Source: Escherichia coli (GTDB lineage: Bacteria; Pseudomonadota; Gammaproteobacteria; Enterobacterales; Enterobacteriaceae). Taken from it: a stretch of 64,000 nucleotides of DNA. Made by a program: the position numbers and the translations under genes. The stretch is from NCBI RefSeq assembly GCF_003019035.1, contig NZ_CP027447.1; one strand, given 5' to 3'. Of this stretch, positions 7,389-39,984 are shown one piece after another (the first letter of the stretch is position 1; every line of letters starts with the position of its first letter). The notes below the pieces were generated by a model. The model saw nothing but the letters and a program-made list of their open reading frames with translations, was not told the DNA's origin and searched no databases.

Positions 7389-8876
7389 TTATAGCGTTAC
7401 GCCGCTTTTGAAGATCGCCAGTTCGCGGAAGTCGTTACGCTCGTTGCAGGTTTGTTTACCATTGGCAAACTCAACGATGGTATCGATAAATTCTTCCAGC
7501 AACTGCGGCATCGCTTTACCGTGGATCAGCTGACCCGCGTCAAAGTCGATCCAGTGTTTTTTCTTCGCCGCCAGTTCACTGTTGGTGGCGATTTTCACCG
7601 TCGGCACAAATCCACCATACGGCGTGCCACGACCAGTACTGAACAGCACCATATGGCAGCCCGCACCCGCCAGGGCGCTGGTCGCTACGGCATCGTTACC
7701 CGGCGCACTTAACAAGTTCAGCCCCGGCGTTTTCAGACGCTCGCCGTAACGCAGCACGTCAACCACGACACTGGTACCCGCTTTCTGGGTACAGCCAAGT
7801 GATTTGTCTTCCAGCGTGGTGATACCGCCCGCTTTGTTCCCCGGTGATGGGTTTTCGTAGATCGGCTGGTCATGGGCAATAAAGTACTGTTTGAAGTCGT
7901 TGACCATGGTGACCAGTTTTTCAAACGTTGCTTCGTCGCGGCAATGGTCCATCAGCAACTGCTCTGCGCCAAACATCTCCGGCACTTCGGTCAGTACGGT
8001 AGTACCACCGTTAGCAATCACGTAGTCAGAGAAACGCCCCAGCATCGGGTTAGCAGTAATACCAGAAAGACCGTCAGAACCACCGCACTCCAGACCAAAC
8101 TTCAGTTCGCTGAGTTTGCCTGGCTCGCGTTTATCGTTGCGCATCACGTTATACAGCTGATGCAAATGCGCGATCCCGGCCTCGATTTCATCATCCTGCT
8201 GTTGGCAGATCATGAAATGAACGCGTTCAGGATCGATATCGCCCAACGTTTCACGGAATGCGGCAACCTGGTTGTTTTCACAGCCCAGACCAATCACCAG
8301 CACTGCACCCGCGTTCGGGTGGCGCACCATGTTTTGCAGCATGGTGCGAGTATTGATGTGATCGTCGCCCAGTTGTGAGCAGCCGTAGGTGTGGCTGAAG
8401 AGGAACACGCCGTCGGTACCTTCAGCGTTGTTGGTCTCTTTCAGGAAACGATTTTGGATCTGCCGCGCGATGCCGTTAACACAACCCACGGTTGGCAGGA
8501 TCCACAGCTCATTACGCACCCCGACATCGCCGTTCGCGCGACGATAGATCTGCACTTCACGATCTGCCGCTTGCGCAGGCAGATCCTGAAAATCAGGTTG
8601 ATAGCGATACTGATCCAGATCGCTCAGATTCGTGCGCGTATTGTGGGCGTGAACGTGTTCCCCCGCCGCAATATCCGCCAATGCATAACCAATCGGCAGG
8701 CCATATTTAATGACGTTGGCCCCTTTTGCGATATCCGTTAACGCAAATTTATGTCCACGAGCAACATCCTGGCGCAGCGTAACAGTCTGGTTATCGACAC
8801 TGACTTCTGTGCCTTCAGCCAAATCCGCTAAAGCAACCGCGACGTTATCCAGCGCATGGATCTTGATGTATTGCAT
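7389..8876 (-). CDS. uxaA: altronate dehydratase UxaA
   Basis: 495 aa ORF; recognised as UxaA; adjacent to uxaC. Confidence 0.9.
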   Translation of the reverse strand: MQYIKIHALDNVAVALADLAEGTEVSVDNQTVTLRQDVARGHKFALTDIAKGANVIKYGLPIGYALADIAAGEHVHAHNTRTNLSDLDQYRYQPDFQDLPAQAADREVQIYRRANGDVGVRNELWILPTVGCVNGIARQIQNRFLKETNNAEGTDGVFLFSHTYGCSQLGDDHINTRTMLQNMVRHPNAGAVLVIGLGCENNQVAAFRETLGDIDPERVHFMICQQQDDEIEAGIAHLHQLYNVMRNDKREPGKLSELKFGLECGGSDGLSGITANPMLGRFSDYVIANGGTTVLTEVPEMFGAEQLLMDHCRDEATFEKLVTMVNDFKQYFIAHDQPIYENPSPGNKAGGITTLEDKSLGCTQKAGTSVVVDVLRYGERLKTPGLNLLSAPGNDAVATSALAGAGCHMVLFSTGRGTPYGGFVPTVKIATNSELAAKKKHWIDFDAGQLIHGKAMPQLLEEFIDTIVEFANGKQTCNERNDFRELAIFKSGVTL

Positions 8877-8890
8877 ATCAACCCCAGACC

Positions 8891-10785
<1,895 letters not shown>

Positions 10786-12084
10786 ATGCGTAAAATTAAA
10801 GGGTTACGTTGGTATATGATCGCACTGGTGACGCTCGGCACCGTGCTTGGTTACCTGACGCGTAACACTGTGGCGGCAGCTGCGCCAACTCTGATGGAAG
10901 AGTTAAACATCTCCACCCAACAGTATTCCTATATCATCGCAGCGTATTCTGCTGCTTATACGGTCATGCAACCGGTAGCGGGTTATGTACTGGATGTGCT
11001 GGGTACGAAAATCGGTTATGCAATGTTTGCTGTACTGTGGGCCGTGTTCTGTGGTGCAACCGCGCTGGCAGGTAGTTGGGGTGGCCTGGCGGTTGCTCGT
11101 GGTGCGGTCGGTGCCGCGGAAGCCGCGATGATTCCGGCGGGTCTGAAAGCCAGCTCCGAATGGTTCCCGGCGAAAGAGCGTTCCATCGCGGTAGGTTACT
11201 TTAACGTAGGTTCTTCGATTGGTGCGATGATTGCGCCGCCGCTGGTGGTATGGGCAATCGTGATGCACAGCTGGCAGATGGCATTTATCATCTCCGGTGC
11301 GTTGAGCTTTATCTGGGCGATGGCATGGCTGATTTTCTACAAGCATCCGCGCGACCAGAAACATCTGACCGATGAAGAACGCGACTACATTATTAATGGT
11401 CAGGAAGCCCAGCACCAGGTTGACACAGCGAAGAAAATGTCCGTTGGTCAGATCCTGCGCAACCGTCAGTTCTGGGGTATCGCGCTGCCGCGCTTTCTGG
11501 CAGAACCGGCATGGGGTACTTTTAACGCGTGGATCCCGCTGTTCATGTTTAAAGTTTACGGCTTTAACCTGAAAGAGATCGCGATGTTTGCCTGGATGCC
11601 GATGCTGTTTGCTGACCTCGGTTGTATCCTCGGTGGTTACCTGCCGCCGCTGTTCCAGCGTTGGTTTGGTGTGAACCTGATCGTTTCCCGTAAGATGGTC
11701 GTAACGCTGGGTGCTGTGCTGATGATTGGCCCGGGTATGATCGGTCTGTTCACCAACCCGTATGTCGCGATTATGCTGCTGTGTATCGGTGGTTTTGCTC
11801 ACCAGGCACTGTCTGGCGCACTGATTACGCTCTCTTCTGACGTGTTCGGTCGTAACGAAGTGGCGACGGCGAACGGTTTAACCGGGATGTCCGCATGGCT
11901 GGCAAGTACGCTCTTTGCTCTGGTGGTTGGTGCACTGGCTGACACCATCGGCTTTAGCCCGCTGTTCGCAGTACTTGCGGTATTCGACCTACTGGGGGCA
12001 CTGGTTATCTGGACGGTATTGCAGAACAAACCGGCGATTGAGGTGGCGCAGGAATCACATAACGATCCCGCACCGCAACATTAA
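10786..12084 (+). CDS. exuT: hexuronate (galacturonate/glucuronate) MFS transporter ExuT
   Basis: ORF 10666-12084 trimmed to MRKIKGLRWYMIALV... (432 aa); MFS topology. Confidence 0.88.
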   Translation: MRKIKGLRWYMIALVTLGTVLGYLTRNTVAAAAPTLMEELNISTQQYSYIIAAYSAAYTVMQPVAGYVLDVLGTKIGYAMFAVLWAVFCGATALAGSWGGLAVARGAVGAAEAAMIPAGLKASSEWFPAKERSIAVGYFNVGSSIGAMIAPPLVVWAIVMHSWQMAFIISGALSFIWAMAWLIFYKHPRDQKHLTDEERDYIINGQEAQHQVDTAKKMSVGQILRNRQFWGIALPRFLAEPAWGTFNAWIPLFMFKVYGFNLKEIAMFAWMPMLFADLGCILGGYLPPLFQRWFGVNLIVSRKMVVTLGAVLMIGPGMIGLFTNPYVAIMLLCIGGFAHQALSGALITLSSDVFGRNEVATANGLTGMSAWLASTLFALVVGALADTIGFSPLFAVLAVFDLLGALVIWTVLQNKPAIEVAQESHNDPAPQH

Positions 12085-12104
12085 GACTTAACGTAAGTTG
12101 TAAT

Positions 12105-12147
12105 GACGAAGCCGCCTGTTCAGGCGGCTTCGTTGTTTAGTTTTTTC
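12105..12147. terminator. bidirectional intrinsic terminator between exuT and the fimbrial adhesin gene
   Basis: gacgaagccgcc tgttca ggcggcttcgt hairpin followed by tgtttagtttttt. Confidence 0.6.
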
Positions 12148-12159
12148 TGGTCTGCGAGG

Positions 12160-13242
12160 TCAATTGATCGTCGGCAATGACGGGGTAAAGATGACCGACA
12201 ATTTACCCATATAATATCCCGCCTGTTTTGCCGTCACGTTAAATTTGTCGACCACCAGCGTCAGCGGAGTGGGAACACACATCACAGCGTAACGGATGCC
12301 TGGAAGCACCACCGGGCGGACATGTTTAAGATTGATGTTGGTCCAGACCATGCTCTCATTGTTGCGCACATCAATTTGCCCACCTGATTCCGGGTCATAC
12401 ATTTTGACACGGTAATCAATACGCTCCCCTTCATCCGTTGAGCTCGCGCCCTGACGATAAATCGAAAACGCACCATTACTGCGTCCTGCCGCCGTTTTTC
12501 CCTCATCTTTTAGCAAAATTTCATAGCTAAGACCGTTACCGTTAAAGCCATCGTACAGGCACATATCCAACATCGTCAGATCTTGCGCGTAGTTGTTGCC
12601 GTTAACGCTGCCTGTTGGATGCAAATCCAGTTGTACGCGTGGCGTGGCGTGGGCGAACTCCGGGAAGAACACGTCGATATGGTTGGGATCGAGGGTGTTC
12701 AGGGTAATATCTGCAAAATAGTCCACTGAAGGGCTATTTGAGTGCAGCTTAACCTGCCCTTTCCAAACGCCGCCAATCGGCAACTTCTTCATTTCTGCCT
12801 GCTCAAGGTAAAGCGTAAGAAACTTCTTATCAGCATAATGTGGGGTTGAATCCCCTGATACGTAGCATTTATACCGATTTGAGTCCCTGAGATCCGTTTG
12901 TGCAACGTATCCTTCACACCCTGGAGCCCCGTCAGTGACATAAGCGTTTTTAAATCCTTTGAGCGTAATCGGCCAACGCATACCACTGCGCTGCTCCGTT
13001 AAATAAATTTGTACTGTCGAGAAATTTCCAGAGTCCGAGCAAGTTTGCTGGCTATTGGGATATGAACATTCATACCACATATACGCGTTATTTCCGGAGG
13101 ACTCTTCCTCGTTCCAGAAGTAATAATCCGCTCTGCCAGCGGCCAAATCATAAGTAATTTCAGCCGTCACATTTGGCGTAGCGTGCCCCCCCGCGACCAT
13201 GCCAAATAAGCATAAAACCATGGCAATTAATCGATTTCTCAT
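12160..13242 (-). CDS. class 5 (CS1/CFA-I-type) fimbrial minor/tip adhesin subunit (CooD/CfaE-like)
   Basis: 360 aa with signal peptide (MRNRLIAMVLCLFGMVAGGHA); last gene of a chaperone-pilin-usher-adhesin operon; size and position match CooD/CfaE. Confidence 0.65.
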   Translation of the reverse strand: MRNRLIAMVLCLFGMVAGGHATPNVTAEITYDLAAGRADYYFWNEEESSGNNAYMWYECSYPNSQQTCSDSGNFSTVQIYLTEQRSGMRWPITLKGFKNAYVTDGAPGCEGYVAQTDLRDSNRYKCYVSGDSTPHYADKKFLTLYLEQAEMKKLPIGGVWKGQVKLHSNSPSVDYFADITLNTLDPNHIDVFFPEFAHATPRVQLDLHPTGSVNGNNYAQDLTMLDMCLYDGFNGNGLSYEILLKDEGKTAAGRSNGAFSIYRQGASSTDEGERIDYRVKMYDPESGGQIDVRNNESMVWTNINLKHVRPVVLPGIRYAVMCVPTPLTLVVDKFNVTAKQAGYYMGKLSVIFTPSLPTIN

Positions 13243-15941
13243 GGTGCAACCTCCCTTTGCGCCGTCTGGACGTTTCCACGTAATTTAGGCTGTTTCAACT
13301 GTGCCTGAACCTGAATAGATTCCGGCAATTGTGAATAACTCACCACGCTACAATTCACATCCCCGCTATAGCGAATGCTGGCGCGTTTCTTCAAAACATT
13401 CAGCGGACATTTCAGGAACTGCTGCCCGGAAAGCAGATACAACTCTTTTTCACCACTGCTAATCTCAAGTGTAAATCCGCCATCTTCAGCCACCAGTAAC
13501 ATGGCGCTATTCAGACCCACCAGCGGGAACTTCTCTACCGATGCGGGTAATAACAAGCGACCAATATAGTTGTAATTAAAACTGGCAGACACTTCGCGAT
13601 AACGTAATTTGCCCGGCAACAGCATTAACTCACGATTTCCCGCACCGTTAATGATGTTGGTTGTTCCTTGCTGGTTACCCTGATTACTGTCGTTAACTTC
13701 AACAAAGCCAGACTGAAATCCAGGATAGGGGAATAACACGCTGTCGCTTTGACCAAGCTGCAATGTTCTGCTGCCAGCCACCCGCGCTTCGAGTTGCAGA
13801 CCCTGACTCTGTTCATCCTGTTCAGAGAAACCTTTCACATCCACCAACACCGCTCCCAGCAAATCATCTGAGCCGCTGGCCCCCAAATTGATGCCATAGC
13901 GACTCACCGCCAGCGTGGAGCTGTATGTCCCGGTGAAGGCCGAGAGATGATCATGGTTCTGGCGATCATAACTGTCTGAGACAGTAGCGTAGACATTTCC
14001 ATATTGGCCATCCCAACGCCCGTTAACCGCGCTGTTTATGGTATCGGTGTTCAAACCGCCGACGGTCACGCCAAGCTCTTTATGGCTGAATGAGTCGTTA
14101 TAAAAGGTATGCGATAACTGCCATGACGTTTGATCGCCATCCTGATCGCTATAACGATAATCAGTAGAAACATTGGTTGAATGGCTGTTGTTATTGCTGT
14201 CCATCGTTGGCGTATCAGATAACGAAAACGACAAGTACAAGCCGTTGTCATCGTTATCGCCACCGTTGTCGTTACGATGGAAAACCCCAAGGGAAGTACT
14301 CAAAATCCAGTCACGCATCACAAAAGCGCGAGAAGCGCTAAGTTGTACGGTCTCGGAAATGCTTTGAGCCGTAGTCTGGCGAAGATAGTTATTTTCAAAG
14401 CTCTGCTGTTTGTCCCAGCGCAAACTATCATCAGTGTTATTTTGTGTGCGGGTATAGCCCAGCATCATATTCCAGCCGACAAAATTCTGTGAAACCGTCG
14501 CGGAAATACTTTCATAACAGCTTAAGGCGTTGTAGCTCTCTCTGTTGTCGGTTGTACAAGCATCACCGTCAGAGTTGGTCCGATAAAAGCCCAACGTCGG
14601 CCATCCCGGATGACTCCAGTTGGCCTGTTGCATATCGCCTTTGCCGCCGTCATCGTTACGGAACACGCTGGCACTGATAGCCAGATTCCCCGCCCCGCCT
14701 AAATCCGCCGTCCAGTTATTACCTAACTCGAAAGCACTTACATCATCGGCATTCGCCAGCCCTGCGTAGAGCTCATATTGCGGATGTAATGGCAGACGAA
14801 CCCCTAGCTGATAAGCTGAACTTTCATCATCAGAAACCTGTGATGTGGTTTTACCTGCCTGCAAGAACCACTGGGCATTTCCGTCTGTCAGACCGCCGGT
14901 TTTGGTAAACGGTACAAGCTCGGTGCGGGTGAGTTGGTTATTTTCATAAACTTTTAACGCCACGCTGTAGCTGCCTGGCGGAAAGGAACTGGTATCAATA
15001 AATTGCGAACCACTATTGAGGTAAAACGATCCCAACAGTTGTTCATTACGATAAGCATCAACACGAGAATTGCGCGAAAGCAGGATCATTACCGGCGTAC
15101 CCTGCTGGCTTTGCGTCTGGTTTAAATAACTGAGTGTCGACCCGATACGCATTCCGTCTATTGCACCGAGTGGCAGGAAGTTAAAAGTAAAGTTTCCACC
15201 TTGCGCATTAAATAATGTGCGGTTGTCCATCCGCCCCGCCTGCACATAATAACGGCGTAAAAAATCATAGCGGTAATAGAGATCGCTGACATCGACATTG
15301 TTGTCGCTGACATCATCTGCATCATAACCGTCGAAATTCCAGTGCGCACCAATATAGCTATTTTCTGTTATTCCCAGTGCGCCATTACCCTGAATTGACA
15401 ACGATTGGTAATCATCCTGAACCAGCACATTAATATCTTGCTGATGTATAAAAGCGTTAACCGTATTTTTGTCTGGATTTAAATACAATGACTTCGAGTT
15501 AAACGCAGAACTCCATTGCGGATTAAGAAATAGCGTTGCTGAACTTTCTTCATCATTGTAGATTATTTCTACTGTCTCAGTATTAAGAAAACCGCATCCT
15601 GAATCAGTACGTACAAAACCACAAGCCAGTTCACCGTGGCGAGCTAAGGGTTGCGATAGTTTTTCTTTCACTGTATGAGCAATTTTTTGGTCGTCAGTGC
15701 TCAATTCAAGTTTGCTGTATAAACTTGATGAATCAAGAAAGGTTACGGTATCAAGATTAACCATAGCATAATATTTACCGAGACTTTTCCCTGCAAAATA
15801 AACCTCGATATACTCCTGCTGTCCCTGAGCAATAACCTCAAAACCAGCGGGAATTTTTGTTAATGTTGCCTTTGCCGGGCTGAGACTCGCCAGGATCAAA
15901 AGAGCCAGTAATTTTTTGTCCATGGCTGTCCTGTAATCCAT
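13239..15941 (-). CDS. class 5 fimbrial outer-membrane usher (CooC/CfaC-like)
   Basis: 900 aa with signal peptide; beta-rich with G/N/D/S/T-rich segments; 4 nt overlap with the downstream adhesin gene; size and operon position match alternate chaperone-usher ushers. Confidence 0.7.
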   Translation of the reverse strand: MDYRTAMDKKLLALLILASLSPAKATLTKIPAGFEVIAQGQQEYIEVYFAGKSLGKYYAMVNLDTVTFLDSSSLYSKLELSTDDQKIAHTVKEKLSQPLARHGELACGFVRTDSGCGFLNTETVEIIYNDEESSATLFLNPQWSSAFNSKSLYLNPDKNTVNAFIHQQDINVLVQDDYQSLSIQGNGALGITENSYIGAHWNFDGYDADDVSDNNVDVSDLYYRYDFLRRYYVQAGRMDNRTLFNAQGGNFTFNFLPLGAIDGMRIGSTLSYLNQTQSQQGTPVMILLSRNSRVDAYRNEQLLGSFYLNSGSQFIDTSSFPPGSYSVALKVYENNQLTRTELVPFTKTGGLTDGNAQWFLQAGKTTSQVSDDESSAYQLGVRLPLHPQYELYAGLANADDVSAFELGNNWTADLGGAGNLAISASVFRNDDGGKGDMQQANWSHPGWPTLGFYRTNSDGDACTTDNRESYNALSCYESISATVSQNFVGWNMMLGYTRTQNNTDDSLRWDKQQSFENNYLRQTTAQSISETVQLSASRAFVMRDWILSTSLGVFHRNDNGGDNDDNGLYLSFSLSDTPTMDSNNNSHSTNVSTDYRYSDQDGDQTSWQLSHTFYNDSFSHKELGVTVGGLNTDTINSAVNGRWDGQYGNVYATVSDSYDRQNHDHLSAFTGTYSSTLAVSRYGINLGASGSDDLLGAVLVDVKGFSEQDEQSQGLQLEARVAGSRTLQLGQSDSVLFPYPGFQSGFVEVNDSNQGNQQGTTNIINGAGNRELMLLPGKLRYREVSASFNYNYIGRLLLPASVEKFPLVGLNSAMLLVAEDGGFTLEISSGEKELYLLSGQQFLKCPLNVLKKRASIRYSGDVNCSVVSYSQLPESIQVQAQLKQPKLRGNVQTAQREVAP

Positions 15942-16013
15942 AATAAATACTAAAATAGTTAAAAGAAGGGAGGACTTGCCTCCCTTTATTGCATGTTAAT
16001 TCTGTTATCCAGA

Positions 16014-16514
16014 TTAGAGAGCCTGGGACAGATAAATGCTAACTACGCCACGGTAGATACCCGTTTCCAGAACACCTTTGGTAGCCTGGGAAAACATCAG
16101 TGGTTTAGCCAGCGAACCGTTAGTTAACGCATCGGAAGCAAAGATTTTCGTTGCGGTAAACGTGGTTGCCGCATCAGCTTTAATCTCTTCACCACCCCAG
16201 GTTACGGTCAGCGGAACAATTTTGCTGGCGTCCAGGCTCTGAACCAGTTGCGCAGGCGAAACTAACTGCATTTTCACGTCTTTGGTCGTGTCATTTGACC
16301 AGATTTTAGTCATTAACTGGTAAGATTGCAGACCCTGACCTGGCAGATATTGCATTTCTACTGCCTTCGGCAGTGCAGTATTATCGGTCTGCGTCATATC
16401 CAGAGCAGCATCAACGTTAGCAGTAACAGTGATATCTTTTTGTACTGCTAATGCAGAACCTGCAACGGAAAACATTGCCGCTACCAGAAGAGATTTTGCG
16501 AATACCTTTTTCAT
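16014..16514 (-). CDS. class 5 fimbrial major pilin subunit (CooA/CfaB-like)
   Basis: 166 aa; signal peptide MKKVFAKSLLVAAMFSVAGSALA; mature region resembles CS1/CFA-I major pilins (ITVTANVD..., C-terminal ...GVVSIYLSQAL). Confidence 0.72.
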   Translation of the reverse strand: MKKVFAKSLLVAAMFSVAGSALAVQKDITVTANVDAALDMTQTDNTALPKAVEMQYLPGQGLQSYQLMTKIWSNDTTKDVKMQLVSPAQLVQSLDASKIVPLTVTWGGEEIKADAATTFTATKIFASDALTNGSLAKPLMFSQATKGVLETGIYRGVVSIYLSQAL

Positions 16515-16543
16515 TACTATTCCTTGGTTTATTACAATGATAA

Positions 16544-17260
16544 TTAATGGACCGCCAGCTCAAACTCGCCATTGTCCTTGGTGATCCAGTTATTATATTT
16601 GACAACGATTTTATCGTAGCCAGATATGCTTTCTAAAACTCTTTCCTGACCAGGGAAAATGTTTTTATTTACGGTCTGTGTTCTGCACTCCGCAGAACCA
16701 CTATTTTTACAATAGGCAATGGTTAATATCTTCAGACGTTGATTGCCATTATTGATTAGCTTTTTATCGGCGTTAATATCTAACTTTGCCACAGGCTGCT
16801 GAGGTGGCACGCTGACAACAATCCCCCAAATTAAGTTAACCGTTAATTGCATGGAGAGATCTTTTTTATTATCTGTTGCATCATCAATGCTGGGTACAGC
16901 TTCAAATTTAACCCGATAGTTTTTTTCTTTTTGCTCAGGTTCCATTGCCACAAAACGCACGGTTTTGCTACTACCGCCAGGCAAAGCAAATTTGGGCGGC
17001 ATTATCACAAGTTGGTTTGCATCGCCTGAAGTTACTTCGATTTCTTTTTCTTGTGGTGTTGATGGATTATCGATACGAAATACGGTTGCCTTTATATATT
17101 GGACTTCATTCGTTTTCGATATTACACGAACACTTCCTTCTCCCTGACTGTTTATAGATACAGACATAGGATATACAGTCATATTAGATTGTGCGAAAAA
17201 TGATGTGCACAGAAGTAAGACAGGCCCGAGCCGTAATAATCGATTAATTTTCGCCACCAT
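16544..17260 (-). CDS. class 5 fimbrial periplasmic chaperone (CooB/CfaA-like)
   Basis: 238 aa with signal peptide; first gene of the operon; size and position match CooB/CfaA. Confidence 0.7.
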   Translation of the reverse strand: MVAKINRLLRLGPVLLLCTSFFAQSNMTVYPMSVSINSQGEGSVRVISKTNEVQYIKATVFRIDNPSTPQEKEIEVTSGDANQLVIMPPKFALPGGSSKTVRFVAMEPEQKEKNYRVKFEAVPSIDDATDNKKDLSMQLTVNLIWGIVVSVPPQQPVAKLDINADKKLINNGNQRLKILTIAYCKNSGSAECRTQTVNKNIFPGQERVLESISGYDKIVVKYNNWITKDNGEFELAVH

Positions 17261-17551
17261 TTAATCAGTTTTACATTATTTCATAAAAAGTTGGCGCATT
17301 AGAAATCATACTATTTTTCAAGTCAACACAAAAAAGCATCTTTAGATAAAATTATTTATTCTCAAAAAAATACAACCTACTGAAAAATATGTTTTTTCAC
17401 AATTCAACATAATCAATTTTAGGAATATATTAATATTCACAACATCAATAAATAATATTATTTCAATCATGCAATTTATATTTTAACAATGGCATACGCA
17501 TGCATAAAGTGGTATGATAACTTTGTCCGCATTCCACTCCTGGAGACGCAT
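17261..17551. promoter_or_regulatory. strongly AT-rich intergenic region: putative fimbrial operon promoter (leftward) and exuR promoter (rightward)
   Basis: About 290 bp of very low GC (runs such as ttatttattctcaaaaaaatacaacc, aatatattaatattcacaacatcaataaataatatt) between divergent genes. Confidence 0.45.
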
Positions 17552-18328
17552 ATGGAAATCACTGAACCACGCCGTTTGTATCAACAACTTGCCGCTGATC
17601 TGAAAGAGCGCATCGAACAGGGCGTCTATCTGGTGGGTGATAAACTGCCTGCCGAACGCTTTATTGCCGATGAAAAAAACGTCAGCCGCACCGTGGTTCG
17701 TGAAGCCATCATCATGCTGGAAGTTGAAGGCTATGTCGAAGTGCGTAAAGGTTCAGGTATTCATGTGGTTTCCAACCAGCCGCGCCATCAGCAATCGGCT
17801 GACAATAATATGGAGTTTGCCAATTACGGTCCGTTTGAGCTACTGCAAGCCCGCCAGCTCATCGAAAGTAATATTGCCGAGTTCGCGGCAACTCAGGTCA
17901 CAAAACAGGACATCATGAAATTGATGGCCATCCAGGAGCAGGCACGCGGCGAACAATGCTTCCGTGATTCCGAGTGGGATTTGCAGTTCCATATTCAGGT
18001 AGCCCTGGCGACGCAGAACTCCGCCCTGGCGGCTATCGTTGAAAAAATGTGGACCCAGCGTAGTCATAACCCGTACTGGAAAAAACTGCACGAACACATT
18101 GATGCCCGTACCGTCGATAACTGGTGTGATGACCACGATCAAATCCTCAAGGCGCTGATTCGCAAAGATCCTCATGCTGCTAAGCTGGCAATGTGGCAGC
18201 ACCTGGAAAACACCAAGATCATGTTATTTAACGAAACCAGCGACGATTTCGAGTTCAATGCCGACCGCTATCTGTTCGCCGAAAACCCGGTGGTGCATCT
18301 CGATACAGCCACCAGCGGCAGTAAATGA
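17552..18328 (+). CDS. exuR: GntR-family hexuronate regulon repressor ExuR
   Basis: ORF 17489-18328 trimmed to [21 protein letters not shown]... (258 aa); GntR-type helix-turn-helix N-terminus. Confidence 0.88.
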
Positions 18329-37447: not shown

Positions 37448-37761
37448 AACGACCTACGTTAATTACCTCATTGACGGCATGAAGTGTATCAAAATGAAAT
37501 GAACAGGATATGTGCGACCACTCACAAATTAACTTTCAATACTTTCCAGGGTAACTTCACGTCAATTAAATACCTTTAAATATCAATAAGTTAAAGTATA
37601 AAAATCAGCATAAACCCTGATTTTTGTCAAAAAAAATGACGGGGATAACCATATTTTATGGCGATAACATCATTCGTTATGTGGTTAATACAAAAAAGGG
37701 GCTGAGACCATATTTCAAGCAATTACCGGATAATTACCAGGCAAAATTTGAGTTAAATTTA

Positions 37762-37980
37762 ATGAGCAAGTTCTCAAATTTTATTATAAATAAACCATTT
37801 TCAGCGATAAATAATGCGGCACGTCACATTTTTTCACGCTATTTGTTGGAGAACAAACATTTATTTTATCAATATTTTAAAATTTCGAATACAGGTATTG
37901 ATCATCTCGAACAATTGATTAACGTCAACTTTCTCCCTCATGACAGGACGTCATTTTGTGAATGCAATCGTTTTCCATAA
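37762..37980 (+). CDS. tdcR: small tdc operon regulatory protein TdcR
   Basis: ORF 37624-37980 (118 aa) trimmed to MSKFSNFIINKPF... (72 aa); divergent from tdcA; start uncertain. Confidence 0.55.
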   Translation: MSKFSNFIINKPFSAINNAARHIFSRYLLENKHLFYQYFKISNTGIDHLEQLINVNFLPHDRTSFCECNRFP

Positions 37981-38796: not shown

Positions 38797-39984
38797 ATGT
38801 CCCCTGTTTCATCAATTGGTAATGATATTAGTAGTGATTTAGCCCGTCGAAAAATGAATGACCTTCCTGAAAGCCCCATAGGAAATAACCTCGAAGCACT
38901 AGCACCAGGCATAGAAAAACTAAAACAGACCTCTGTTCAAATGGTCACTTTACTTAACGCGTTACAACCAGGAGGGAAATGTGTTATCACTGGTGATTTT
39001 CAAAAAGAATTAGCGTACTTACAAAATGTAATTCTTTATAATGACTCCTCTCTTCGTCTGGATTTTTTTGATTATAACGCCCGAATTATTCAACGATCAG
39101 ACAATACCTGTGAACTTACAATTAATGAACCGTTAAAAAACCAGGAAATATCCACAGGCAATATCAATGTTAATTGCCCATTGAAAGACATTTACAATGA
39201 AATCAGGAGGTTGAACGTAATCTTTAGTTGTGGGAGTGGAGGTATAGTTGATCTATCCTCTCTGGACTTACGGAATGTCGATTTAGAACTTTATGATTTT
39301 ACAGATAAACATATGGCCAATACAATTTTAAATCCTTTTAAATTGGATGACACAGATTTTACTAATGCCAACATGTTTCAGGTAAATTTCGTTAGTTCAA
39401 AACAAAACGCCACAATCTCATGGGATTATTTACTAAAAATAACGCCTGTTATAACAAGCATTAACGATATGTATTCTGAAGAAAAAATTAAGCTTGTCGA
39501 AAGTTGTTTAAATGCGCTTGGAGATATTACCGAAGAACAATTAAAAATCATGAGACTTGCAATTATAGAATCTATACCAAGAGCAACTCTAACAGATCAA
39601 TTAGAAAATGAATTAACAAAAGAAATATATAAAAGCTCATCGAAAATTAACAATTACTTGAACAGAATTAAATTACCAGAGATGAAAGGATTCTCATCAA
39701 AAAAAATAGATTATTACATCGATATAATCATTAAAGATTATGAAAGCGTCAAAGAAAATGCTTATCTTATCGATCCAAAAATTAATTACAATACAGATTT
39801 AAACATAGAGGATTCTAGCTCAGAGGAATTCCTTTCAGATAATACACTAGAGAAAGACGAAAATTCTCCTGACAATTGCTTTGAGGTCGTAAAATATAAC
39901 ACATATGAAGCTTATAACTCAGAGAAGCAATATTTTACCAGAGAGGACTATACGTATGATTACGACCTTTTAAATGCAATATAG
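38797..39984 (+). CDS. yhaC: uncharacterized protein YhaC
   Basis: 395 aa; low-GC, N/K/I/D-rich; Ser-rich N-terminus; repeat-like central segment. Confidence 0.7.
   Translation: MSPVSSIGNDISSDLARRKMNDLPESPIGNNLEALAPGIEKLKQTSVQMVTLLNALQPGGKCVITGDFQKELAYLQNVILYNDSSLRLDFFDYNARIIQRSDNTCELTINEPLKNQEISTGNINVNCPLKDIYNEIRRLNVIFSCGSGGIVDLSSLDLRNVDLELYDFTDKHMANTILNPFKLDDTDFTNANMFQVNFVSSKQNATISWDYLLKITPVITSINDMYSEEKIKLVESCLNALGDITEEQLKIMRLAIIESIPRATLTDQLENELTKEIYKSSSKINNYLNRIKLPEMKGFSSKKIDYYIDIIIKDYESVKENAYLIDPKINYNTDLNIEDSSSEEFLSDNTLEKDENSPDNCFEVVKYNTYEAYNSEKQYFTREDYTYDYDLLNAI

Follow-up and report, generated by a model that had tools for sequence, protein, structure and literature searches.

What controls the fimbrial operon that lies between exuT and exuR in this Escherichia coli genome, and does it depend, as the CS1 and CFA/I operons do, on an AraC-family activator encoded elsewhere? 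The question centers on a 291-bp spacer that extends exactly from the start codon of the periplasmic chaperone gene on the minus strand to the start codon of exuR on the plus strand (Table 1). On balance, this spacer is probably a two-part control region in which the promoters of the fimbrial operon, eaf, and of exuR stand back to back. Overall, it looks like an ordinary fimbrial promoter, belonging to an uncharacterised operon of a known accessory islet and placed beside an autoregulated repressor gene. The analysis shows the anatomy of the locus, its composition, its pattern of conservation and how eaf and rns are distributed in the population; the activity of the promoters and the binding of H-NS and ExuR are inferred.

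Composition and gene content of the islet

The spacer has a GC content of 25.8%, compared with 50.3% for the window, the 64,000-nucleotide stretch of DNA analysed here. Within the spacer, GC is 19-21% over 17261-17480 but reaches 44% over the 50 bp nearest exuR; the chaperone gene itself stands at 39.6%. Of the 63,710 sliding windows of 291 bp, 50 fall below the spacer, and the lowest-GC stretch of that length in the 64 kb (17234-17524) overlaps it, so that a preliminary description of this DNA as a very AT-rich control region is confirmed. The same description found no cognate regulator in the window, in agreement with the PGAP annotation of E. coli SCU-301, a genome 100% identical to the window over 12000-17700 (5.7 kb compared): AraC-family genes are absent, and the regulators annotated across the window are ExuR, YhaJ, TdcA, TdcR and AgaR only. 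The islet consists of four structural or assembly genes and nothing else. No conserved small ORF was found in the spacer (a 42-residue ORF at 17342-17470 was dropped as not conserved), an Rfam scan of the spacer gave no match, and the chaperone start codon is not preceded by an obvious Shine-Dalgarno sequence.

Table 1. Features of the eaf-exuR locus, with positions counted from the first base of the window
Feature	Position	Strand	Basis or remark
exuT	ends 12084	+	PGAP
DNA missing from empty-site (K-12-type) genomes, approximate extent	12157..17501	.	haplotype comparison
CfaE/CblD-family tip adhesin/initiator gene	12160..13242	-	PGAP, Pfam CblD
TcfC/CooC-type usher gene	13239..15923	-	PGAP start; open frame extends to 15941
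CS1-type major fimbrial subunit gene	16014..16514	-	PGAP, Pfam Fimbrial_CS1
eaf periplasmic chaperone gene, first of operon	16544..17260	-	PGAP, Pfam PapD_N
Divergent intergenic control region, eaf chaperone gene / exuR	17261..17551	.	291 bp, GC 25.8%
Invariant block AAAAAGTT (plus-strand letters), at predicted eaf transcript start	17285..17292	-	conservation
Predicted -10 of eaf promoter, TCTAAT	17298..17303	-	17-bp spacing to -35; invariant columns
Invariant run ATTAGA (plus-strand letters)	17298..17303		conservation
Invariant run AAGTCAA (plus-strand letters)	17320..17326		conservation
Predicted -35 of eaf promoter, TTGACT	17321..17326	-	invariant in six distinct haplotypes
Single exact Rns/AggR-type motif ATAATTTTATC	17345..17355	-	chance-level, misplaced, not conserved
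Invariant block TACTGAAA, candidate regulator site	17378..17385	.	conservation; ~-87 to -94 from predicted eaf start
Invariant blocks TTTTAGGAAT (17417-17426) and ATTCACAA (17435-17442), candidate operator	17417..17442	.	conservation
Further invariant runs (at least 6 bases)	17474..17481, 17525..17536		conservation
Invariant run CAATGGCATAC	17487..17497		holds predicted exuR -35
Predicted -35 of exuR promoter, ATGGCA	17489..17494	+	within the invariant block 17487-17497
Invariant run AAAGTGGTATGATAACTT	17506..17523		conservation
Putative 19-bp ExuR-type operator AAAGTGGTATGATAACTTT, overlapping exuR -10	17506..17524	.	likeness to exu-region sites
Predicted extended -10 of exuR promoter, TGGTATGAT	17510..17518	+	K-12 haplotype: TGGTATAAC at equivalent place
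Invariant run GGAGACGCATATG	17542 onward		conservation
exuR coding sequence, GntR-family hexuronate repressor	17552..18328	+	PGAP

The four genes are all intact and place the operon in the alpha/class-5 (alternate chaperone-usher) fimbriae, both by their order (chaperone, major subunit, usher, tip adhesin) and by class-specific Pfam families (PapD_N, 3.5e-8; Fimbrial_CS1, 1.2e-23; Usher_TcfC, 3.7e-60, together with TcfC and CooC_C; CblD, 1.5e-94). The chaperone is 36.8% identical to CfaA. The operon itself is already known. It was termed 'CS1-like' in the genome paper of strain SE11, which also lists it in E24377A, HS, ATCC 8739, 536 and SMS-3-5 (Oshima 2008, PMC2608844), and was named eafABCD, in the exuT-exuR position, in that of E. 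coli W (Archer 2011, PMC3032704); for the 'CS1-like' fimbrial type, PMC6033998 cites Wurpel 2013 as the source. The common exuT-exuR position, the four genes and the 100% identity to SCU-301 identify the operon of the window with these. The searchable literature yielded no published promoter or regulation study of eaf, and no start-site, ChIP or hns derepression data for the locus. The analysis predicts a promoter at 17298-17326, candidate operator blocks and independence from Rns.

Among 5426 complete E. coli genomes, 1904 (35%) carry the operon at exuT-exuR, a genome being counted as a carrier when the locus covers 80% or more of the 5.7-kb query; the remaining genomes show the exuT and exuR ends only. 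With 5 genomes at ≥99% identity, the window's allele is a rare one, and the commonest carrier class among the 30 genomes listed is ∼85% identical to it, as exemplified by WP5-S17 (85.5%). A search of genome contigs with the eaf usher returned Escherichia matches only. The eaf-bearing state is old, because three other Escherichia lineages have the operon at the identical site.

Conserved elements and predicted promoters

Eight eaf-bearing haplotypes were aligned: the window, BH100, a near-identical MAG-binned contig, WP5-S17, 30COLEC and representatives of three other Escherichia lineages, in which the core genes on either side of the locus show 91-95% identity to the window. The eight are not independent samples, and invariant columns were scored over the six distinct haplotypes. 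The spacer falls into two parts. In its AT-rich part, identity to the window is 68-74% in the five haplotypes outside the allele group of the window and 95% in BH100; in the 75 bp adjoining exuR it is 89-100%. Invariant columns accordingly make up 51% of 17261-17476 versus 85% of 17477-17551.

The left 215 bp (17261-17476, ∼80% AT) would drive eafABCD from a sigma-70 promoter on the minus strand, TTGACT-17-TCTAAT, with a predicted start site at ∼17291. This is the best-scoring minus-strand sigma-70 match in all eight haplotypes, always at 224-226 nt from the exuR ATG. In the Escherichia sp. MOD1 haplotype the -35 reads TTGACA at equal distance from the exuR ATG, and the most divergent haplotype presents TTGACA-17-TTTAAT in the matching position. 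The hexamer columns are invariant at 12 of 12 positions versus 6 of 17 in the spacer between them, against a background of 51% (P ∼3e-4), and the -35, which matches 5 of its 6 consensus positions, is conserved. The total score is 10/12. It is conservation that carries the promoter call, because matches of this quality are common in DNA this AT-rich: 44% of dinucleotide shuffles reach 10/12, and the match in a single sequence is not significant. The hexamer spacing is constant at 17 bp, and the distance between the eaf and exuR promoters is fixed within 1 bp.

Three short invariant blocks located 85-150 bp upstream of the eaf start are probable regulator sites. The two more distal ones, TTTTAGGAAT and ATTCACAA, span ∼-126 to -151 from the eaf start and enclose an inverted repeat, GAAT-N8-ATTC (17423-17438). 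Most of 17378-17385 and 17417-17442 is preserved in the divergent MOD1 haplotype too. Compared with the patterns of CRP, IHF, RcsAB, CpxR and LysR-type regulators, the invariant blocks gave nothing convincing.

The right 75 bp are predicted to contain the exuR promoter. Its sequence, ATGGCA-18-TATGAT, has a TG-extended -10 and recurs in each of the eight haplotypes at 33 nt from the ATG. The preliminary description reasoned that the spacer must also hold this promoter, and the conserved promoter and operator block at 17487-17551 bears this out. As expected of an ExuR-regulated promoter, a palindrome resembling the other exu operators overlaps the core promoter, at the -10 TGGTATGAT. This 19-bp element, AAAGTGGTATGATAACTTT, is invariant in the eight haplotypes. 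It shares 17 of 19 positions with the palindrome that precedes uxaC (10356-10374), read as its reverse complement, and 15 of 19 with the one that precedes exuT (10537-10555). It is a putative ExuR-type operator, the uxaC-exuT comparison sites being taken as operators from their position and palindromic form. Because the -10 sits inside it, exuR presumably stays autoregulated, and such an arrangement is what one would expect of an autoregulated exuR. An ExuR/UxuR consensus, AAATTGGTATACCAATTT, found no match within 3 mismatches and was replaced by the comparison with the uxaC-exuT palindromes. Close to the eaf promoter, two possible additional ExuR-type sites, the half-site AAAGTTGG (17288-17295) and a 13/19 match in the eaf promoter spacer, were rejected as chance matches that are lost in the commonest allele class.

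In genomes of the empty-site (K-12) type, the exuT-exuR spacer is 129 bp long, and the window becomes alignable with it again only from 17502 onward (GCA-AAAGTGGTAT...). The ∼50 bp shared before the exuR ATG are ∼70% identical between the two types. The K-12 type keeps the TG-extended -10 (TGGTATAAC), a ribosome-binding site and a weaker version of the operator (15/19), the one found here being nearer to a perfect palindrome. Upstream of ∼-20, the exuR promoter adjoins the exuT terminator in K-12 and AT-rich fimbrial control DNA here. The exuR upstream context thus differs between carriers and non-carriers of eaf, as the preliminary description had supposed, with homology to K-12 ending ∼50 bp before the ATG. 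Set beside the ExuR-controlled promoters in general (uxaCA, exuT and exuR), the promoter of the window shares the 19-bp palindrome, here overlapping the exuR -10, but has 215 bp of AT-rich DNA from the fimbrial control region as its neighbour in place of the exuT terminator. For K-12, a gSELEX study lists a constitutive RpoD promoter between exuT and exuR but assigns other hexamers to it (PMC3946193), so any exact placement of the K-12 exuR promoter is provisional.

Activation and silencing of the eaf operon

The ETEC class-5 promoters (CS1 coo, CFA/I cfa) share with eaf the fimbrial class, the gene order, AT-rich upstream DNA and the lack of a linked regulator. Strict dependence of eaf on an Rns/CfaD/AggR-type activator encoded elsewhere would follow this model, and some carriers, such as ETEC E24377A, indeed have both eaf and rns; the distribution of sites and genes nevertheless makes such dependence very unlikely. 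In published AggR/Rns sites (WWWWWWWTATC), an invariant TATC closes a run of A/T bases, and the site precedes the -10 by 21-23 bp (PMC6392122). At class-5b promoters, Rns protects one region next to the -35 and another at ∼-109, and the cores of these footprints match TATTTTTTTATC at 67% of positions or more (PMC2579436). The operon strand of the spacer holds one exact W7TATC (17355..17345) and another with two mismatches, counts that are equalled in simulated sequences of the same composition (P = 0.35 and 0.64). The exact site is centred at ∼-59.5, which is neither adjacent to the -35 nor at -109, lies 41 bp from the -10 instead of the required 21-23 bp, and has its TATC replaced by TAAC in 4 of 8 haplotypes, including WP5-S17 as the example of the commonest class. 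A T6 tract abutting the -35 does match TATTTTTTTATC at 8-9 of 12 positions, but the loose criterion (at least 8/12) is non-discriminating, with 22 matches in the spacer. Between -77 and -140, no 12-mer reaches 9/12, or 8/12 with a TATC end, in any haplotype. In the cfaA promoter, the positive control, the same scan recovers GTTTTTTTATC exactly 21 bp upstream of the TATTAT -10.

The two core promoters differ: cfaA combines its well-placed site with a poor -35 (best total 8/12), while eaf has a conserved, near-consensus -35 (total 10/12) and no well-placed, conserved TATC site, and so departs from the weak core promoter of the Rns-dependent class. The eaf spacer is also lower in GC than the cfaA upstream region (25.8% versus 34.7%). 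Unlike the ETEC CS1 and CFA/I systems, eaf is chromosomal, present in 35% of E. coli and mostly found in genomes that lack an rns-like gene. A search for rns-type DNA, which also detects cfaD, csvR, aggR and genes like them, was positive in 212 of 5426 genomes, in every case on plasmids and never on a chromosome; none is in the window. Since 212 genomes stand against 1904 carriers, at least ∼89% of eaf carriers have no such gene. More distant relatives of eaf have other neighbours: a tcf-like plasmid cluster of Salmonella has an Lrp/AsnC-family neighbour gene, and a plasmid relative in Pantoea adjoins genes for a winged-helix protein and a LuxR-type protein. Because relatives adjoin other regulator types, membership of the fimbrial class does not imply an AraC partner. 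For ETEC H10407 a CfaD regulon has been published, but it is uninformative here, as that strain has an empty exuT-exuR site. As a general mechanism, dependence on Rns is not supported; accessory activation could still operate in the few strains with both, such as E24377A.

As the core promoter is near consensus, RNA polymerase most likely needs no activator for its recruitment at eaf, and control is therefore to be expected through silencing and anti-silencing. Most likely, H-NS-type silencing would act on the AT-rich tract and on the AT-rich start of the chaperone gene to keep expression of the operon low, and chromosomal factors or conditions would relieve it instead of plasmid-borne Rns, CfaD or AggR. 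Composition makes H-NS silencing plausible: the spacer is ∼80% AT over more than 200 bp and far more AT-rich than the window (19-21% versus 50.3% GC), as expected of a promoter of the xenogeneic, H-NS-silenced type, and tracts of this composition and length are reportedly near-universally H-NS-bound in ChIP studies of E. coli and Salmonella. Motifs of the type TCGWTWAATT are reportedly bound by H-NS with high affinity (Lang et al. 2007); exact copies occur at 17240-17249 (TCGATTAATT, in the chaperone gene) and at 13225-13234, with three in the whole 64 kb, which are small numbers, and the copy at 17240-17249 is lost in the commonest allele class. The ten A/T tracts of at least 4 bases in the spacer show no 10-11 bp autocorrelation, so that intrinsic curvature is not evident. 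Phased A-tract curvature is not obligatory for H-NS binding. The cryptic chaperone-usher operons of K-12, which are reported to be silenced by H-NS (Korea et al. 2010), are similar to eaf in being chromosomal, in having an AT-rich promoter region and no dedicated activator, and in their little or no reported laboratory expression; they are of the gamma/pi class and have experimental hns data, whereas for eaf silencing is inferred.

It is unlikely, though less so than dependence on Rns, that the eaf promoter is simply active, giving modest constitutive expression, and that its AT-richness is a legacy of foreign or fast-evolving DNA. The conserved near-consensus core promoter, the four intact genes, the retention of the operon in 35% of genomes and the lack of A-tract phasing would fit such activity, as would RNA-seq of STEC, in which usher and major subunit transcripts were detected, with higher read counts in HUS-associated isolates (PMC6033998). 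These transcripts exclude complete silence in all strains. Against simple activity stand the near-universal H-NS occupancy reported for comparable tracts, the exact H-NS-type motifs near the chaperone start codon and within the operon, few as they are, and the fact that the closest studied relatives are H-NS-repressed: Rns/CfaD-activated promoters are AT-rich and H-NS-silenced (PMC5554520; PMC9820224). Phase-variable control, through a fim-like invertible promoter segment or pap-like Dam/Lrp methylation, is close to excluded, even though phase variation is frequent among fimbrial operons (PMC9820224) and the spacer has several A/T homopolymers, one of which differs (A7/A8) between near-identical haplotypes. 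The spacer has zero GATC sites, its inverted repeats are only short, imperfect and AT-rich, as chance predicts, a recombinase gene is absent from both islet and window, and the promoter spacing is constant at 17 bp. A dedicated chromosomal regulator is a better prospect, if still a tentative one. Such a protein, present Escherichia-wide, would bind TTTCAGTA and GAAT-N8-ATTC with its flanks and act as the main switch; as activator or anti-silencer, it is compatible with H-NS silencing. That 17378-17385 and 17417-17442 are invariant in six haplotypes, when about half of the remaining positions vary among them, points to it, as does the constant eaf-exuR promoter distance, whereas the blocks are only 8-10 bp long, lie in low-complexity DNA, match no known factor convincingly among the patterns compared, and come from eight haplotypes that are not independent.

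Consequences for carriers

The fixed distance between the two promoters, together with the three invariant blocks between them, raises a further reading, which we regard as improbable: a single nucleoprotein complex over both promoters, composed of H-NS and an Escherichia-wide factor on GAAT-N8-ATTC and TTTCAGTA, would couple eaf to exuR. If this were true, fimbrial expression and the ExuR set-point would be mechanically coupled in carriers, adhesin production would be linked to the sensing of sugar acids in the gut, and exuR would be regulated in a way unlike that of K-12-type strains. The existence of two natural exuR upstream haplotypes, one with the exuT terminator and one with AT-rich fimbrial DNA, could in itself make hexuronate regulation strain-dependent. 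For the fimbriae, the present analysis corrects the assumption that each CS1-class operon needs an AraC partner, and it addresses the previously undescribed regulation of an operon that about one third of sequenced E. coli carry, including commensals, STEC and ETEC.

Gene content of the eaf operon

The E. coli W genome paper describes the tip adhesin gene as absent from eaf (PMC3032704). In the window, the fourth gene of this CS1-like fimbrial operon (12160-13242, minus strand) matches the Pfam family CblD with an E-value of 1.5e-94, and PGAP names its product a CfaE/CblD family pilus tip adhesin. On the CFA/I plasmid p504838_88, the cfa operon is closely followed on its downstream side by a gene of the ANR family (AraC negative regulators; L015, 12121-12315). 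No ANR-family counterpart is annotated near eaf.

H-NS-type motifs and the exuT-exuR context

Exact matches to TCGWTWAATT, an H-NS high-affinity motif type, number only three across the 64 kb, and are listed below together with the very AT-rich stretches other than the chaperone-exuR spacer.

Exact TCGWTWAATT matches and other very AT-rich stretches in the window
Feature	Coordinates	Strand	Location	GC
TCGWTWAATT match	7483-7492	+	outside eaf operon	
TCGWTWAATT match	13225-13234	-	inside eaf operon	
TCGWTWAATT match	17240-17249	+	inside eaf operon	
AT-rich stretch	37525-37815		tdcR-tdcA intergenic region	28.5%
AT-rich stretch	39524-39814		within YhaC-family gene	25%

The reading frame of exuR contains an in-frame ATG at 17489 that would add 21 codons upstream with no intervening stop (17489-17551). 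PGAP places the start at 17552, preceded by a GGAG ribosome-binding site, and the K-12 haplotype lacks the 21-codon extension. On the other flank, the open frame containing exuT runs 40 codons beyond the PGAP start at 10786 on its upstream side (10666-10785), so that exuT is overstated in the mechanical ORF list. The exuT-exuR spacer of K-12-type genomes, which lack the islet, carries a perfect 7-bp inverted repeat, TGCGAGT-N8-ACTCGCA (L002, 1640-1665), located exactly where the alignment of eaf-bearing and empty haplotypes ends.

Distribution and divergence of eaf alleles

The islet also occurs on a 5.7-kb contig, SFGN01000125.1, assigned to a 'Lachnospiraceae bacterium' metagenome-assembled genome. 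Its usher shares 98% protein identity with that of the window, and its placement in Lachnospiraceae is almost certainly a binning error. In the chicken isolate E. coli C21 (NZ_CP052877.1), the chaperone gene is split by an IS1A element, an example of natural eaf inactivation.

Comparison of the operon (12160-17260) with six further loci (L005-L007 and L009-L011) reveals extensive allelic variation. Within E. coli, nucleotide identity is only 77-83% for the adhesin gene and 80-84% for the chaperone gene, whereas the flanking core genes exuT and exuR are 96-98% identical, making the eaf genes far more divergent than their surroundings. Since eaf alleles diverge inside the species E. coli as strongly as they do across Escherichia lineages, the sequence comparison suggests allelic diversification or recombination at eaf.
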